From assembly GCA_002293825.1 (NCBI GenBank), contig DBDW01000009.1, positions 26,170 to 90,169 of the forward strand: a DNA stretch of 64,000 bases. Reading direction: 5' to 3'. How positions within the stretch are numbered: position 1 is the stretch's first letter; each line of letters opens with the position of its first letter. The notes under the pieces are model-generated. The model was not told the origin of the DNA. It saw nothing but the letters and a program-made list of their open reading frames with translations, and did no database searches. A program made the position numbers and the translations under genes. Of this stretch, positions 3,064 through 35,919 are shown in pieces. Origin of the DNA: Candidatus Magasanikbacteria bacterium UBA922 (lineage in GTDB: Bacteria > Patescibacteriota > Patescibacteriia > Magasanikbacterales > UBA922).

Positions 3064-4185
3064 TTATGCCACAGTCACTTCTTTACACAAATACACATCC
3101 TGCACTGCATTCAATATTGCAATTCCTTCTTTCAGAGGTTTCTCAAATGCTTTACGACCAAGAATCAGTCCCATTCCTCCAGCGCGCTTATTAATGACTG
3201 CCATTCTAACAGCTTCCTTCAAATCAGATGAACCATTACTCTCTCCACCTGAATTAATAAGCCCAATTCTTCCTGCATAGCTATTGAGCACCTGATAACG
3301 AGCAAGATCAATCGGATGATCACTCGTAAGTTCCGTATACATTCGTTCACTATATTTACCAAAACTGTGCTTACCTTTATTGAGCGCAAGATACCCACCA
3401 TTGAGCGTAGGCAATTTCTGCTTCACAATATCTGCACCAAGAGTAGCTCCAATATAATTCGCCTGCCCTGTAAAATCAGCCGCCTCCTGATAATCAATCT
3501 TACCTACTTTAAAACCAGGGTTTCTTACATAGCACCACAATACCGTAAACATTCCCTTTTCATGAGCATGTGCAAATGCCTCAGAAACTTCAGTAATCTG
3601 ACGCTTTGATTCTGGTGAGCCAAAATAAATAGTGGCGCCTACCCCACGTGCACCCATCTCATACGCCTTGTGCACATTCGAAAACATAATCTGATCATAT
3701 TCATTTGGATATCGAAACAAATCATTGTGATTAAGTTTTACAATAAATGGAATACGGCCAGCATACTTCTTGCTCAAGAGCGCAAGTGTGCCATAGGAAG
3801 ACGCCACAGCATTGCATCCGCCCTCGATTGCAAGTTTTATAATATTCTCAGGATCAAAATAGAGCGGATTCGTAGAAAATCGTGCACCAGCTGTGTGTTC
3901 AATCCCCTGATCCACAGGTAAAATCGAGAGATATCCTGTTTTCTTGAGTCTGCCTGTACTCCTCATACGAATCAAATTGTCAATCACTTTATGCGATCGA
4001 TCTGACGCTGAAAACGTATCATAAAAAAAATGTTTATGAGGAAGATGCAAAGAATCTTTTGAGATTTTAGGATTAGAAAAATTGAGCAAATACTCAGCTT
4101 CATCACCCAAAAGTTCAGTTATTTTTAAAAAATCAAGCATAAAAAAATGATAGTACTCATATACTACCATTTTTTTATAATTCAA
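3064..4185 (-). CDS. fbaB: Class I fructose-bisphosphate aldolase (DhnA/FbaB archaeal-type)
   Basis: [12 protein letters not shown] and the GxG-rich TIM-barrel signature of DhnA-family class I aldolases. Length 373 aa. Confidence 0.65.
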
Positions 4186-9822: not shown

Positions 9823-9896
9823 CTATACTCAGTTGAATTGAAAAAGTAACAAGCTGTGTAGTTAACAGTCTTCGAAACACAACTCTGTGTTTCTGT

Positions 9897-13232
<3,336 letters not shown>

Positions 13233-24800: not shown

Positions 24801-25004
24801 TTAGGGTAAAAAACGAAAAATGTCTTCAATTTTTACATTAAAAAGCTCAGCACACTTATAGGCAAGATAGAGGGTTGGTTGATATTTCCCCTGCTCTATG
24901 GCATTAATGGTCTGTCGAGTAACACCCAGTTTGAGTGCCAACTCTTCTTGGGTCATATCCTGCCGCACCCGCAAATCTTTCAAATTACAGATAATGCTAG
25001 GCAT
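24801..25004 (-). CDS. XRE-family (Cro/C1-type) HTH transcriptional regulator
   Basis: LRVRQDMTQEELALKLGVTRQTINAIEQGKYQPTLYLAYKCAELFNVKIEDIF is a canonical HTH_XRE. The start is probably the internal Met. Confidence 0.7.
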   Translation of the reverse strand: MPSIICNLKDLRVRQDMTQEELALKLGVTRQTINAIEQGKYQPTLYLAYKCAELFNVKIEDIFRFLP

Positions 25005-25076
25005 AGGTAATGTAAAATACTTTTTACACAATCTATTCGTAATGTAAAATACTTTTTACATATTGTCAAGTATCAA

Positions 25077-25949
25077 ATGTGGATAAATATGACTACAATC
25101 AAAAACCTACTAATAGTTGGAACAAAAAAAATTGACCGCCTAGATGCTGAGCTTATATTGGCACATGTTCTTAAAAAAAAACGAGAATTTGTGATTACTC
25201 ATCCAGAATTCTTAGTCCCCTGTTTTCCAAAGTTTAGATTCCAAAATAGTGTTTCGAAGAGAACAAAAGGAATCCCTCTTGCCTATCTCACCGGACACAA
25301 AGAGTTTTTTGGGCTCGATTTTTTGGTAAACAAGCACACGCTAATCCCTCGACCAGAAACTGAAGTATTGATAGAAGAAGCACTGAAAGAAATTAAAAAA
25401 AATACTACGATAATTGATGTGGGTACTGGCTCAGGCTGTATCCCTATTTCAATTATAAAATCTCTCAAAGCCAATAGCACAACCTACGCAACTGACATCT
25501 CAGCCAAAGCTCTTAGAATGGCACGAAAAAATGCCGCTAAACATGCTGTTGAAATAAAATTTTTCAAAGGGAACCTTCTTGAGCCAATAATCAAAAACTA
25601 TGATCTATTGACTATTGGCTCTGAACTAATCATCACAGCCAATCTTCCCTATCTTACACAGAAACAATTTGACGAAGAAGTATCGATCCAACACGAACCA
25701 CATTCAGCACTGGTAGCTGAAGACAATGGTCTTGCGCTCTACAAAAATTTACTGAATCAAATACAATTTCTAATTTCCAATTTTCAATTTCGTATTTCTG
25801 CATTTTTCGAAATCGATCCCTCTCAATCTCTCCCCCTTTCAAAACATGTACACAACCTCTTCCCTAATCCAGAAATCAAAATTATCAAAGATGGTATGGG
25901 AAACGATCGAGTGATACATATCATCATTGACAAATCCACTCACTCGTGA
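25077..25949 (+). CDS. prmC: Release factor glutamine N5-methyltransferase PrmC/HemK, with variant motif NLPY in place of NPPY
   Basis: SAM-binding IIDVGTGSGCIPISI. PLAYLTGHKEFFGLDF...LIPRPETE matches the HemK N-terminal motifs. Catalytic motif TANLPYL. Near prfA. Confidence 0.7.
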   Translation: MWINMTTIKNLLIVGTKKIDRLDAELILAHVLKKKREFVITHPEFLVPCFPKFRFQNSVSKRTKGIPLAYLTGHKEFFGLDFLVNKHTLIPRPETEVLIEEALKEIKKNTTIIDVGTGSGCIPISIIKSLKANSTTYATDISAKALRMARKNAAKHAVEIKFFKGNLLEPIIKNYDLLTIGSELIITANLPYLTQKQFDEEVSIQHEPHSALVAEDNGLALYKNLLNQIQFLISNFQFRISAFFEIDPSQSLPLSKHVHNLFPNPEIKIIKDGMGNDRVIHIIIDKSTHS

Positions 25950-31311: not shown

Positions 31312-31418
31312 AGATCCCCCACCCAGACTTTACGACTTAGGCCCTCCATGCTAAACTCTCTACCGTACGCAAGCCTTTTAAGCATTTCAGGCCTTTGTGG
31401 CCTCTCAAGCCGTCTTTT

Positions 31419-33464
31419 ATGTCCAAAACAGCAAAAGTAAACTCATCATACAGTGCAAAAAATATTCAAGTACTTGAAGGATTAGCAGCAGTGCGCAAAC
31501 GACCAGGAATGTACATCGGCTCTACAGGTGCCCCAGGTCTACACCATCTCATCTGGGAAGTGGTTGACAATTCGATTGACGAAGCAATGGCTGGACACTG
31601 TGATCAAATTACCATCAAATTATTGCCCGATCATTGGATTGAAGTAACAGACAATGGACGTGGTATTCCTGTAGATATTCATCCACAAAAAAAAGTAAGT
31701 GCACTCGAACTCGTACTCTCGACCCTTCATGCCGGAGGTAAATTTGGCGAAGAAGATGGTGGATACAAAGTATCCGGAGGTCTACATGGTGTCGGTGTGT
31801 CAGTAGTAAACGCACTCTCGACCGATCTGATTGCTACCGTACATCGTGATGGAAAAATTTGGGAACAACGATACAAAATCGGTAACCCTCAAAACAAAGT
31901 AAAAGCAATCGGCACGACAAAAACCACCGGAACTACGATTGCATTTCGTGCAGATGACTCAATTTTTGAAACCATTGACTACGAATGGAAATATATCATC
32001 GACCATATCAGACAGCAGACCTATCTCAATAAAGGTGTGCGTATTGTAATTATCGACGAACGCAGCGAAGAAGAACGAAAAAAAGACAAAACCGCACTTC
32101 CATTCAAAAAAAATACTCATCAATTCTTTTTTGAAGGAGGAATCGAGAGTTATATTCGCCACATCAATAAAAACAAGGAGCCAAAACACGAAAGTATTTT
32201 CTATACTGAAAAAACAGTAGATAATACAATCGTAGAAATTGCACTGCAATACACAGGAGACTTCACTGAATCACTCCACGCATTTACCAATAACATCACC
32301 AATCCAGATGGCGGTACACATGTCTCAGGATTTCGTACAGCACTCACAAGAACATTGAATACCTACGCTCGAAACAAAGGAATGCTCAAAGAAAAAGACG
32401 GCAATCTTACGGGAGAAGATGTGCGTGAAGGACTAAGTACAATCATCTCAGTAAAAACCCCAAATCCTCAATTCGAGGGACAGACCAAAGCAAAATTGGG
32501 AAATCCAGAAGTAAAACCAGCGGTAGAATCTGTCTTTTCTGAGCAATTCATGATCTTCCTCGAAGAACACCCGAAAGACGCTGAAGCAATCATCGGACAA
32601 TGTATGATTGCGGCAAAAGCTCGTGCGGCAGCAAAAATGGCACGCGACACCGTACTCCGCAAAAGTGCCTTGGAAGGATTTACCTTACCAGGAAAACTTG
32701 CAGACTGCTCCAGCAGAAAACCGGAACGCTGTGAACTCTACATCGTAGAGGGAGACTCAGCAGGCGGTAGTGCAAAACAAGGTCGTGATCGAAATACTCA
32801 AGCAATCCTCCCACTTCGTGGTAAAGTCTTGAATGTAGAACGAGCACGACTCGACAAAATTCTCACAAACAATGAATTGAAGTCACTCATCATTGCAATG
32901 GGAACCAATATCGGAGAAATGTTTGAAATCGCACGTCTAAGATACCACAAAATCATCATCATGACCGATGCGGACGTCGATGGATCACATATCCGCACCC
33001 TCCTCCTCACCCTCTTCTTCCGCTACTTCCCCGATCTCATCTACCAGGGACACATCTACGTAGCACAGCCACCACTTTTCAGTATCAAGAAAGGCAAAGA
33101 AGTAACCTGGATCTACAATGAGACCGCGCTCAATGACTACAAAAAGAAATTCGGAATTACAGACGAAGACATGCAGGTAGTCGAGGAAGAGACTGATGTA
33201 GACGCTCCAGCACCCGAAGTAGTCGAAAGTAAAGCTGGAAAATCAAAGCTCAACATTCAACGATATAAAGGTTTGGGAGAAATGAATCCAGAACAACTCT
33301 GGGAAACAACCATGAATCCAGAAAACCGAGTGTTGAAACGTGTCACTATCGAAGATGCAGAAAAAGCTAGTGAGACCTTCGACATTCTCATGGGAAGCGA
33401 AGTCGCTCCTCGCAAAAAGTTTATCCAAACTCATGCGAAGAATGTGAAGAACTTGGATATATAA
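31419..33464 (+). CDS. gyrB: DNA gyrase subunit B
   Basis: ORF 31395..33464. The real start is probably MSKTAKVN. GHKL ATPase motifs, Toprim EGDSAGG, and C-terminal PLRGK. There is no long enterobacterial insertion. Confidence 0.9.
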   Translation: MSKTAKVNSSYSAKNIQVLEGLAAVRKRPGMYIGSTGAPGLHHLIWEVVDNSIDEAMAGHCDQITIKLLPDHWIEVTDNGRGIPVDIHPQKKVSALELVLSTLHAGGKFGEEDGGYKVSGGLHGVGVSVVNALSTDLIATVHRDGKIWEQRYKIGNPQNKVKAIGTTKTTGTTIAFRADDSIFETIDYEWKYIIDHIRQQTYLNKGVRIVIIDERSEEERKKDKTALPFKKNTHQFFFEGGIESYIRHINKNKEPKHESIFYTEKTVDNTIVEIALQYTGDFTESLHAFTNNITNPDGGTHVSGFRTALTRTLNTYARNKGMLKEKDGNLTGEDVREGLSTIISVKTPNPQFEGQTKAKLGNPEVKPAVESVFSEQFMIFLEEHPKDAEAIIGQCMIAAKARAAAKMARDTVLRKSALEGFTLPGKLADCSSRKPERCELYIVEGDSAGGSAKQGRDRNTQAILPLRGKVLNVERARLDKILTNNELKSLIIAMGTNIGEMFEIARLRYHKIIIMTDADVDGSHIRTLLLTLFFRYFPDLIYQGHIYVAQPPLFSIKKGKEVTWIYNETALNDYKKKFGITDEDMQVVEEETDVDAPAPEVVESKAGKSKLNIQRYKGLGEMNPEQLWETTMNPENRVLKRVTIEDAEKASETFDILMGSEVAPRKKFIQTHAKNVKNLDI

Positions 33465-33465
33465 A

Positions 33466-33497
33466 AAATAAACAACCGCTTACGCGGTTGTTTTGTA
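33466..33497 (+). terminator. Rho-independent terminator after gyrB
   Basis: aacaaccgcttacgcggttgtt hairpin followed by TTTGT. Confidence 0.55.
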
Positions 33498-33564
33498 ATA
33501 TAAGTTAGTTGAGGGGTCGGACGCATTGTTGCAATCCGCCCCCTCTCGTCGACACACTAGCCCT

Positions 33565-34368
33565 CTACCGAAGGAGTTCATCCTTCAGCTTTCGAAGCCC
33601 GGGGACGTACGGAAGTCCTGTGGACAGAAACTTAGCATGAAGCGCACGCTTCAAGCCAACTAGTCCAGTCTTCTTGTAATCACTGCAAAAGTCGAGAAAA
33701 CACTCCCAACCCTGCGCGACAGCAAATGCACATTCCCGATCGTAGGCCTCGACCTCCCTCTTAAACCAAACTCTTACCACCTCATCACTCAGAGAATCAG
33801 TCACACGGAGCGGGCCGAATTCTTTCGATGCAGACTCCTCTCCATACTGACTCACAAATTCCTTGTACTGCAGATAATGTACATACTCATGCAGAACAAT
33901 GAGCTGAAGAAGTTGTTTAGGCGTCTGTGGATTATACATCGCTTGTAGCGATATGTGCATGATAGGTGTACTACCTTTCCCCTCGATAGAGCGAACCATG
34001 AACAATGCAATAGTCGCCCCGCCTCCAAGTCCATGGTCCTCGAGATTAAGCCAAAGAACGCGTTCGTCGATGAGACGGAACATATCCTCTCTGATCTCAC
34101 GATCAGGATGCGAGAGCACTAGATCCTTGAGAATCATACTCGGATCTTCACTCACGATCTTGCGAGGTACACTAGTTGCAGCCAGAACTTCGCACGAGTT
34201 CACGGGCTGATTTGAAGGAGGGCTACTGATCGTACCCCTCACACCCGCGCTCTTGGTCTGTGTAACCTCTTTAACGACCACCAACACGACCACGATGCCG
34301 AAGACGATGAGGAACCATTTCCACCACTCCTGATCACTGGAATTCTTGATGTTAGTACGACGAGCCAT
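33565..34368 (-). CDS. Membrane-anchored putative zinc metallopeptidase (HExxH) in a GC-rich island
   Basis: N-terminal TM anchor. LHEYVHYLQ contains an HExxH motif. AGGAG RBS. About 50% GC with G/C-ending codons. Confidence 0.4.
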   Translation of the reverse strand: MARRTNIKNSSDQEWWKWFLIVFGIVVVLVVVKEVTQTKSAGVRGTISSPPSNQPVNSCEVLAATSVPRKIVSEDPSMILKDLVLSHPDREIREDMFRLIDERVLWLNLEDHGLGGGATIALFMVRSIEGKGSTPIMHISLQAMYNPQTPKQLLQLIVLHEYVHYLQYKEFVSQYGEESASKEFGPLRVTDSLSDEVVRVWFKREVEAYDRECAFAVAQGWECFLDFCSDYKKTGLVGLKRALHAKFLSTGLPYVPGLRKLKDELLR

Positions 34369-34429
34369 GAGTTTCTCCTATCTTTGTTGATGAGCACCCT
34401 AATGAAGAACATTCTTCAAAGGGACCAAA

Positions 34430-34505
34430 CAATATACCAGTTTTAAACATTTTTGTCAAGGTAAATACCTACCACCTTGACACAGCCAAAATCCTATAGT
34501 ATAGT
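34430..34505. promoter_or_regulatory. Back-to-back sigma70-like promoters: plus strand for secE-nusG, minus strand for the metallopeptidase gene
   Basis: Plus strand: TTGACA(34477-34482)-17 nt-TATAGT(34500-34505). Minus strand: TTGACA-17 nt-TATATT from the reverse complement of 34430-34465. Same TTGTCAAG...CTTGACA inverted arrangement as at rpsB/rpmE. Confidence 0.5.
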
Positions 34506-34598
34506 TCTCTCATCAATCGGCCCCGGGCCGTTTTTAAAATACTGAATTTACGTCAGTAGCCTCAAAAACATTAACAACATCAGCTACCTTAAACCCAT

Positions 34599-34775
34599 AT
34601 GAATCTCATCACCTACGTCAAAGATTCAATTAGTGAGCTCAGAAAAGTAACCTGGCCTACAAAAAAACAAGCCATCAACTACACGATTATCGTGGTAGCG
34701 CTTGCAATCGGCATGGCACTCTTTTTTGCAATCCTAGACCAAATTCTCAATATCGGTCTTGGAAAACTTATTTAA
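34599..34775 (+). CDS. secE: Preprotein translocase subunit SecE. At 58 aa it is below the ORF-track cutoff.
   Basis: Manual translation gives MNLITYVKDSISELRKVTWPTKKQAINYTIIVVALAIGMALFFAILDQILNIGLGKLI. This shows the SecE KVxWPT motif and a single TM helix, immediately upstream of nusG. Confidence 0.7.
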   Translation: MNLITYVKDSISELRKVTWPTKKQAINYTIIVVALAIGMALFFAILDQILNIGLGKLI

Positions 34776-34808
34776 TCTTACCTTTTAAGCATTTCAAGCC
34801 TTCCTACT

Positions 34809-35354
34809 ATGGCTAAGCAACAAAGCAATCTTGGTAAACGCTGGTACGTGATCCATACGTACAGTGGATATGAGGAAAATGTAAAACACAATCTCGAACA
34901 ACGTATCGAATCATTCGATATGCAAGATAAAATCTTCCAAGTACTCGTTCCAAAAGAAAAGAAAATCAAAATCAAAAATGGTAAACGCAATGTGGTCGAA
35001 GAAAAAATCTTCCCTGGATATGTACTTGTTGAAATGATTGTAACCGATGATTCATGGTATGTAGTACGAAATACTCCAAATGTAACAGGATTTATCGGTA
35101 CCGGCACCACTCCGACCCCTATCGATGCCAAAGAAATGCTCTCACTGAACAAGCGCATGGACGTAGCAGACCCAAGTCACAAGATCGACGTAGAAGTAAA
35201 TACGCCAGTTCGTATCGTTGATGGTCCGTTCAAAAACTTCGAAGGAAAAGTAGCAGAAGTCGACAGTTCACGAGGAAAAATCAAAGTATTGGTCAACATG
35301 TTTGGTCGCGAAACCCCAGTAGAACTCGACGCACTGCAAGTGAAAAAAATCTAA
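34809..35354 (+). CDS. nusG: Transcription termination/antitermination factor NusG
   Basis: NGN domain WYVIHTYSGYE plus KOW domain GKVAEVDSSRGKIKVLV. Confidence 0.85.
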   Translation: MAKQQSNLGKRWYVIHTYSGYEENVKHNLEQRIESFDMQDKIFQVLVPKEKKIKIKNGKRNVVEEKIFPGYVLVEMIVTDDSWYVVRNTPNVTGFIGTGTTPTPIDAKEMLSLNKRMDVADPSHKIDVEVNTPVRIVDGPFKNFEGKVAEVDSSRGKIKVLVNMFGRETPVELDALQVKKI

Positions 35355-35367
35355 CACAAATCTACAG

Positions 35368-35455
35368 GCATATAATGCTTAAAAGGCATATAATGCTTAA
35401 AAGGCTTGAGAGAATAATACTTCTCCGCTTCTAAACCTTTTACGCATTTCTGCCT
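35368..35455. repeat. Tandem 18-bp direct repeat (ggcatataatgcttaaaa x2) plus degenerate copies of a recurring ~20-nt motif
   Basis: Read directly from the sequence. On the opposite strand the copies read ttttaagcattatatgcc. A related ccttttacgcatttctgcc follows at 35437-35455. Confidence 0.6.
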
Positions 35456-35496
35456 TATAAGCATCTAAATCCTTATAGGCCTTATACACTAATACT

Positions 35497-35919
35497 ATGG
35501 CAAAAAAAATCACAACCCAAATTAAACTCCAGATCGTGGGTGGCGCTGCAAACCCAGCACCTCCCGTAGGTCCAGCACTTGGACAGCACGGTCTCAATAT
35601 CCAGGACTTCTGTACAAAATTCAATGCAGCAACCCAGGACAAAAAAGGTGAAGTCGTACCAGTAATCATCAATGTATACGATGACAGAACATTTGACTTC
35701 ATCATGAAAGTAGCTCCAGCAAGTGAGCTTATCAAAAAAGTAGCAAAAATCAGTAAAGGCGCTGGCAATCCACTCAAAGAAAAAGTGGGAAAAATCACCC
35801 GAGCACAGCTCCGTGAAATTGCTGAGAAAAAAATGCCAGACCTCAATGCAAACGATATTGATGCGGCAATGAAAATCATCGAAGGAACCGCTCGTCAAAT
35901 GGGAGTAACCGTAGAATAA
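35497..35919 (+). CDS. rplK: 50S ribosomal protein L11
   Basis: [35 protein letters not shown] is the L11 signature. Confidence 0.9.

Follow-up and report, generated by a model that had tools for sequence, protein, structure and literature searches.

A 64-kb stretch of Candidatus Magasanikbacteria DNA (Candidate Phyla Radiation (CPR)/Patescibacteria), hereafter the window, carries a recurring sequence upstream of gyrB, nusG and rplK that is probably a dispersed, fast-changing 9-nt tandem repeat and not a dedicated regulatory site. Arrays of the repeat gain and lose whole units, appear at new spacers, are confined to non-coding DNA and hold a polarity linked to the neighboring gene. The initial annotation, which described an approximately 20-nt motif, had offered three readings, namely a translation-initiation or leader element, an operator for a shared regulator, or a small dispersed repeat. 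The last of these is borne out by the varying number of units, the lineage-specific insertion at gyrB and the recurrence at non-orthologous spacers; the motif is essentially part of a common dispersed repeat, although the position of that repeat with respect to gene starts is far from random. NusG homologues are 81-94% identical to the window NusG, and the named ones are nearly all annotated as Magasanikbacteria.

The Motif Is Built From 9-nt Units

Strong copies of the 20-mer lie on the forward strand upstream of gyrB (CCTTTTAAGCATTTCAGGCC, 31374-31393) and nusG (CCTTTTAAGCATTTCAAGCC, 34781-34800), and two more lie on the reverse strand in the nusG-rplK spacer (CCTTTTAAGCATTATATGCC, 35367-35386 and 35385-35404). 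The initial annotation had therefore placed these sequences correctly to within one base. Its gyrB copy (31373-31392) sits one base low and lies 25 nt, not 27 nt, from the ATG at 31419, and its nusG copy is indeed 8 nt before the ATG, which is at 34809. The degenerate copies that it described before rplK are present and poor, with four mismatches at 35436-35455 and five at 35453-35472, and the perfect 18-bp tandem on the opposite strand was recovered by Tandem Repeats Finder (35366-35405, period 18, 2.2 copies, 100% match). Every window copy is intergenic or non-coding, and no further copy was found across the whole 64 kb.

Allowing one mismatch at most, the 13-mer core CCTTTTAAGCATT occurs five times against 0.12 expected, a count that none of 100 shuffles reaches; for the 11-mer proposed initially the corresponding figures are six occurrences, 1.8 expected, and 2 of 100 shuffles reaching six. 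Underlying the motif is a 9-nt unit with the consensus GCNTTTNAR, i.e., GC(C/A/T)TTT(Y)A(R), and the 20-mer is not a unit by itself, consisting of two such units plus the GCC of a third. Because a unit commonly takes only about a dozen forms, an "exact" 20-mer can recur in different species. Only 3 of about 65 window genes carry the motif, and the three sites fall within 4.1 kb of each other, which for three points placed in 64 kb has a p of about 0.012.

Arrays Change by Whole Units Between Close Relatives

The array upstream of gyrB (31373..31411, forward strand) comprises four units and a terminal GCC (GCCTTTTAA GCATTTCAG GCCTTTGTG GCCTCTCAA GCC), followed by GTCTTTT and the ATG, with 7 nt between the last GCC and the ATG. 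A probable gyrB promoter (TTACGA, 16 nt, TGc-TAAACT; 31330..31357, forward strand) failed a strict consensus scan and is assigned by inference, and its ATGcTAAACT -10 block is conserved at the related loci L012, L024, and L027. With this promoter the array would fill the gyrB 5' untranslated region (UTR) from about +9 to the start codon. In L012, where gyrB is 84.5% identical to that of the window, the promoter and start region are kept and the array corresponds to a clean 32-nt gap. By this alignment the gyrB array was gained recently, as an insertion of 32 nt found in this lineage only.

The nusG leader array (34780..34800, forward strand) has two units plus GCC ((A)CCTTTTAA GCATTTCAA GCC) and sits in the 33-nt secE-nusG spacer within the operon, separated from the ATG by TTCCTACT. 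The window and L019 have two units each, L008 has three and L012 four, and L024 retains a remnant of about 1.5. The leaders differ by multiples of 9 nt, with 9-nt and 18-nt insertions splitting the window and L019 from L008 and L012. These whole-unit differences among relatives indicate that the nusG array is older than the gyrB array and behaves like a variable number tandem repeat (VNTR). The gyrB array was probably copied from it over a distance of 3.4 kb, and such copying from nearby would explain why the three sites cluster. Two of the loci compared here, L008 and L012 (CAYWFD010000017.1 and CAZNAO010000016.1), come from metagenome-assembled genomes labelled "uncultured Gammaproteobacteria"; their DNA is 85-87% identical to the window over gyrB-secE-nusG-rplK, and the label is probably a binning or labelling error.

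Among syntenic relatives (gyrB, variable gene, secE, nusG, rplK; NusG 83-94% identical), arrays are absent at these sites in L024-L028 and L032-L037. Because close relatives express gyrB, nusG and rplK without arrays, the arrays would appear to be dispensable for the expression of these genes.

Arrays Recur at Non-Orthologous Gene Edges With Fixed Polarity

An exact 20-mer scan of 185,579 species genomes returned 18 matches, about the number expected by chance, and metagenome and viral collections returned only five and three, respectively. Among the 18 are three GTDB Magasanikbacteria and the two window relatives mislabelled as Gammaproteobacteria. The three Magasanikbacteria matches lie in the leaders of genes for a sugar transferase, a Clp-like protein and trmD, which are non-orthologous positions downstream of canonical promoters and before ATGs.

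Loci obtained through TrmD homologues (L038, L039, and L040) are rich in arrays, which occur before fusA, trmD, rpsL and an M50 peptidase gene, in reversed form directly after the rpsG and fusA stop codons, and also immediately upstream of TTGACA boxes. One subfamily, GCCTTGTAA, is shared by two loci: in L040 it occupies the leaders of rpsL and trmD and follows fusA in reversed form, and in L035 it precedes secE. Under a strict definition, 226 kb contain 23 arrays, 18 of them intergenic although intergenic DNA makes up 14% (p = 6e-12), and the five scored as coding are artefacts of over-extended open reading frame (ORF) starts.

Such over-extension has practical effects. The longest ORF at L009 3997 turns an array into a false TrmD N-terminal extension (MPFKHFKPFRLFNH, 3997-4038), and the N-terminus of database protein P0180 (L038 10001-10084) is array-derived (...EKPFEHFKLFRHFKPFYF). 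Gene callers thus add array-derived false N-termini, such as "PFKHFKP..." on trmD. An upstream ORF or genuine N-terminal extension was considered and rejected, as the arrays have no consistent reading frame and most cases lack an upstream start codon; an open frame runs through the array into the ATG at gyrB, L020, L022, and L009, but not at nusG or at a second L020 site.

The placement of the arrays is narrow. In 16 forward arrays the last GCC lies 6-10 nt before a start codon, a position that no reverse array takes. The reverse arrays are instead found 7-8 nt after stop codons (four scored by script), and the one in the window begins 11-12 nt past the nusG stop codon (35352-35354). Orientation tracks the gene and not the replichore, as seen for rpmB (-) and M50 (+) within 1 kb (L039/L040), and the mRNA carries the GCCUUU strand before starts while the complementary AAAGGC strand follows stops. 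At three places a true array precedes a -35 box by 7-22 nt.

Placement Resembles a Ribosome-Binding Site, Pairing Does Not

One explanation for this placement is that the arrays are translation enhancers or Shine-Dalgarno (SD) substitutes, in which pyrimidine-rich GCCUUUYAA units recruit the 30S subunit, through rRNA pairing or through an oligonucleotide-binding (OB)-fold single-strand RNA binder such as ribosomal protein S1 or a cold-shock protein, and reverse copies serve as anti-enhancers. We regard this as unlikely, although several observations speak for it. All 16 starts preceded by forward arrays have them in the sense orientation and at the spacing given above, and GGAG is not enriched upstream of window genes (2 occurrences against 3.4 expected in positions -30 to -1 of 46 ATG genes). 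AGGA and AAGG are about 2.4-fold enriched in the same region, so that the initial annotation's description of genes lacking SD sequences holds for most of them and fails for a minority with a weak SD-like site. GCCTTTT agrees with the CspB optimum of Bacillus, GTCTTTG/T, at six of seven positions, among them position 3 with its preferred C (PMC1904285), and an exact GTCTTTT ends the gyrB leader. Reverse units also sequester forward units in the nusG-rplK spacer, as an anti-RBS (ribosome-binding site) would. As a separate observation on these starts, base -1 of the 46 ATG genes is T in 78%, often within ACT-ATG.

The pairing tests point the other way. It has been noted that the anti-SD motif is missing in part of the Parcubacteria (PMC9297842); unlike those, the one Magasanikbacteria 16S rRNA that was read, a complete sequence from a related Magasanikbacterium (L042 12462-13965), keeps it and ends in the canonical GGATCACCTCCTTTCT. 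Against this tail, which belongs to a relative and not to the window organism, the forward array pairs at -0.3 kcal/mol, compared with -13.4 kcal/mol for an SD control. Pairing with the 5' part of 16S, 23S and 5S rRNA is no better than that of shuffled motifs: for 16S and 23S all shuffles pair more strongly, and for 5S the motif is close to their average. The start-region opening energy of array-bearing genes is like that of other genes, so accessibility is not raised, and both forward arrays are predicted to be unstructured (z = +0.56, at gyrB, and -0.23) and contain no imperfect palindrome. Rfam gave no relevant match for the arrays, either at the gathering threshold or with E allowed to reach 10.

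Distribution also argues against an enhancer: few window genes carry an array, the same genes in close relatives lack one, arrays occur upstream of promoters and after stop codons as well, and in other unit families of the lineage (CGGATnnn and TGTTGTAAA, for example) the unit is not rich in pyrimidines. The cold-shock protein and S1 idea is a resemblance only. Measured against an SD-type RBS, the arrays share the spacing of about 5-10 nt upstream of the start, and lack both complementarity to the 16S tail and the combination of a large gene share with retention at orthologues. Of the translation-initiation or leader element proposed at the outset, the placement therefore stands (5' leaders, one orientation, 6-10 nt before starts) and the ribosome-binding signal does not.

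A DNA-Level Site Is Not Conserved at Orthologous Promoters

The arrays could alternatively act as DNA, with 9-bp direct repeats binding a transcription factor or nucleoid protein, or with phased T-tracts serving as UP elements or curved DNA. This would fit the three arrays found 7-22 nt upstream of TTGACA boxes, the several arrays that begin about 1-12 nt from predicted transcription starts, and the clustering of the window sites in 4.1 kb (p about 0.012). We nevertheless consider it very improbable. At orthologous promoters the -10 box is conserved and the array is not; the number of units varies (about 1.5-4) where an operator would be expected to have a fixed architecture overlapping the promoter; and many arrays are intercistronic, far from promoters (nusG, fusA, and M50), or follow stop codons. 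Strict strand polarity relative to the coding strand and a 9-bp period that is out of phase with the DNA helix likewise disfavor it. For the same reasons of non-conservation, variable unit number and position between cistrons and after stops, the proposed operator of a shared regulator is not upheld.

The reverse tandem does contain the two TATAAT hexamers noted in the initial annotation. They were rejected as a promoter: the promoter scan yielded no acceptable -35 partner, and the corresponding spacer of relatives is free of promoters.

Arrays Extend a Conserved Hairpin in the nusG-rplK Spacer

Between nusG and rplK, arrays in opposite orientations flank a conserved core. The reverse array (35366..35405, reverse strand) is the perfect 18-bp tandem, whose 2.2 copies amount to four units (GCCTTTTAA GCATTATAT x2), and forms the 5' arm of a predicted hairpin; the same reverse arrangement is present in the spacers of L008 and L012. 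The core (35405..35435, forward strand) consists of a short inner stem-loop followed on its 3' side by an invariant GCUUCU. Degenerate forward units (CCTTTTAC GCATTTCT GCCTTATAA GCATCTAAAT CCTTATAG GCCTTATAC; 35436..35487, forward strand) form the 3' arm ahead of the rplK ATG at 35497. The whole hairpin, about 117 nt (35366..35482, forward strand), folds at -38.1 kcal/mol with z = -4.56, and 1 of 200 shuffles folds equally well; its sense strand has 42 pairs and no G-U pairs.

An outer helix, an inner hairpin and GCTTCT also occur upstream of rplK in L024, L026, L027, L032, and L035, with unrelated helix sequences, and covariation of this helix between species was judged by eye. On the strength of these predicted folds, the core of the rplK leader is a conserved structure in every relative examined, and the arrays merely lengthen its basal helix in this lineage. 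The conserved leader, for which Rfam gave no match, may be a ribosomal protein autoregulatory leader.

Partner-specific covariation between the hairpin arms was not detected beyond the subfamily level. A G-U signature marking the sense strand as that of an RNA hairpin was examined and rejected as inconsistent, with the sense strand stabler in fusA-trmD spacers and the antisense strand stabler in the window and L038. As a side observation, RNA of the reverse tandem (35362-35406) could pair in trans with the gyrB leader (31369-31418) at -39.1 kcal/mol, and with its own cis partner more weakly, at -34.7 kcal/mol; the trans pairing may be a mere by-product of membership in the same repeat family.

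The Lineage Carries Many Tandem Repeat Families

Other spacers of the relatives' loci hold tandem arrays of different 7-9-nt units, often as inverted pairs. The unit families include CGGATnnn, TGTTGTAAA, GTGATTAn, CGAATTn, AGTTCnn and GATGATA, some of which are shared between species, and GCNTTTNAR is the most widely shared family seen among the 7-9-nt spacer arrays of Candidatus Magasanikbacteria. With a period of 7-10 and at least 2.8 copies, arrays number 32 per 100 kb in the relatives and 4.1 per 100 kb in unrelated control loci.

Arrays of 7-8-nt units also lie within the coding sequence of Magasanikbacteria prmC (HemK) genes, where protein length is unchanged. They were found in the window at 25764-25799 (prmC 25077-25949), in L026 at 1421-1450, 1599-1630, and 2030-2056, in L024 at 582-698, and in L035 at 2099-2284. 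One is a perfect AAAGTTGG x3.75. The prmC arrays occupy homologous protein positions with a different unit in each species, and some are inverted pairs flanking the S-adenosylmethionine-binding motif.

This abundance bears on the view that the arrays are a purely neutral by-product, in which slippage and template switching litter unconstrained DNA and the observed placement is simply where selection spares arrays. In keeping with it are the VNTR-like unit changes, the recent gyrB insertion, the many unrelated unit families, the presence of arrays even within prmC, the lack of an accessibility effect and the lack of partner-specific covariation. It does not predict the sense-only orientation before starts (16 forward, 0 reverse), the narrow spacing to start and stop codons, or the fact that several species retain a single unit family at different loci, and for these reasons we think it quite unlikely to be the full account.

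Several of these and other points also weigh against the dispersed, fast-changing repeat that we favor. Strict polarity and the narrow 6-10-nt spacing go beyond what a neutral repeat would require, which hints at a selected role. One unit family is kept in species whose spacers cannot otherwise be aligned, and this suggests that the unit has a sequence-specific partner or generator. For the three arrays upstream of promoters, a role at the RNA level is not obvious. The hairpin itself is awkward in two respects: in the window it is more stable on the antisense strand (-47.7 kcal/mol), and the pairing of reverse arrays with their own partner is no stronger than with forward arrays at other sites, which gives no evidence for selection on the pairing itself. 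The window, moreover, has few tandem arrays (1.6 per 100 kb), some of the loci were found via the motif and make the sample a biased one, and all promoter and transcript assignments are predictions.

Comparison With Described Repeats and RNA Elements

The arrays most readily call to mind the short tandemly repeated repetitive (STRR) sequences of cyanobacteria, whose function is unknown and for which transcript stability or translational coupling has been proposed (PMC2670836). Both are short tandem units in non-coding DNA with several unit families per genome, and both often form hairpins between operon genes, as the STRR at hupS-hupL does (PMC2670836). Of the STRR hallmarks, the Magasanikbacteria arrays thus show the non-coding site, the multiple families and the hairpin-forming inverted arrays, and depart from the tandem heptanucleotide: the units here are 9 nt long (7-9 nt in the other families) instead of 7 nt, and the phylum is different. 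To our knowledge, the rule that sense arrays lie 6-10 nt before starts and reverse arrays 7-12 nt after stops is undescribed for STRR.

Whole-unit copy change between close relatives, intercistronic position and a single orientation relative to transcription are features that the arrays share with VNTRs and with mycobacterial interspersed repetitive units (MIRUs). MIRUs, however, are 40-100 bp long and contain small ORFs that overlap the neighboring stop and start codons, whereas the units described here are 9 nt and have no consistent reading frame. Repetitive extragenic palindromic (REP) sequences and the bacterial interspersed mosaic elements (BIMEs) and REPINs related to them are similarly dispersed and intergenic, often lie just after stops, form mRNA hairpins as inverted pairs and turn over quickly. 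The REP unit of proteobacteria is an imperfect palindrome mobilized by the RAYT (Y1) transposase, in contrast to GCNTTTNAR, which is non-palindromic and tandemly iterated. The Pfam scan of the window covered 20 ORFs, 10 of which gave results.

Pyrimidine-rich single-stranded sequence just upstream of starts is shared with U-rich and epsilon-type enhancers and with cold-shock protein and S1 sites, and GCCUUUU resembles the CspB optimum GUCUUUG/U (PMC1904285), a likeness that we treat as resemblance only. The arrays differ from such enhancers in being variable and dispensable between relatives and in occurring outside 5' UTRs. A search of the literature for a published description of GCNTTTNAR arrays found none. 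Because unit length, palindromy and embedded ORFs do not match those of STRR, REP/REPIN, or MIRU, the arrays are short intergenic tandem repeats of a CPR lineage that fall outside the described families.

Other Features Near the Arrays

Promoters are of the canonical sigma-70 type, for example TTGACA-17-TATAGT before secE (34477-34505). About 6 nt past the predicted secE transcription start lies a hairpin, CGGCC-CCG-GGCCG, followed by TTTTT (34518-34535), which is kept with loop changes in L024, L026, and L027/L028 and could be a 5' stabilizing hairpin or an attenuator of the secE-nusG operon.

Upstream of prmC, two copies of GTAATGTAAAATACTTTTTACA make up a direct repeat (about 24990-25076) that includes the dyad TGTAAAA-TAC-TTTTACA. 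This repeat is situated where prmC and a gene for a 76-aa HTH_3 protein (24801-25031, reverse strand) diverge, and is probably the operator of this HTH_3 repressor. Elsewhere in the window, a 23S rRNA match (9891-13226, reverse strand) spans 3336 nt against a 2925-nt model, pointing to an insertion of about 400 nt, and has no adjacent 16S gene.

A Model for the Origin and Action of the Arrays

We propose that the arrays arise by slippage and short-range ectopic copying, and that they survive only where their placement is compatible with expression; their action, whatever it is, would be at the RNA level. On its own, a forward array would account for the bulk of a 5' UTR that is poor in G and unstructured, which is the situation at gyrB and nusG. 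Where a reverse array after an upstream stop is combined with a forward array before the next start, the two would form a hairpin that loops out the whole spacer, and in the case of nusG-rplK the arrays would lengthen the basal helix of the conserved leader hairpin. Such a hairpin would bring the stop and start codons close together and occlude the forward arm, and could act on the rplK message by modulating its re-initiation or coupling, its processing or its stability, a role that has been proposed for the cyanobacterial STRR hairpins.

A more far-reaching hypothesis, which we offer as speculation and to which we attach little weight, is that the polar arrays constitute an SD-independent initiation and coupling device in Magasanikbacteria. 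Sense arrays about 8 nt before the start would serve as a landing platform for S1, a cold-shock protein or another single-strand RNA binder, and reverse arrays about 8 nt past the upstream stop would fold back on them. The spacer, including its terminator and promoter, would then be looped out, which would place a terminating ribosome beside the next start codon and, in the window, couple nusG to rplK and gate the conserved rplK leader.

The instance in the window is small, and its significance lies in the lineage-wide pattern of fast-turnover, polar 7-9-nt arrays in an uncultured CPR group. Variation in unit number may offer a strain marker in metagenomes. If the placement of the arrays is selected, they would show how gene initiation and coupling are handled in the operons of bacteria that make little use of SD pairing; if it is neutral, they would be the record of an unusual mutational regime in reduced genomes.

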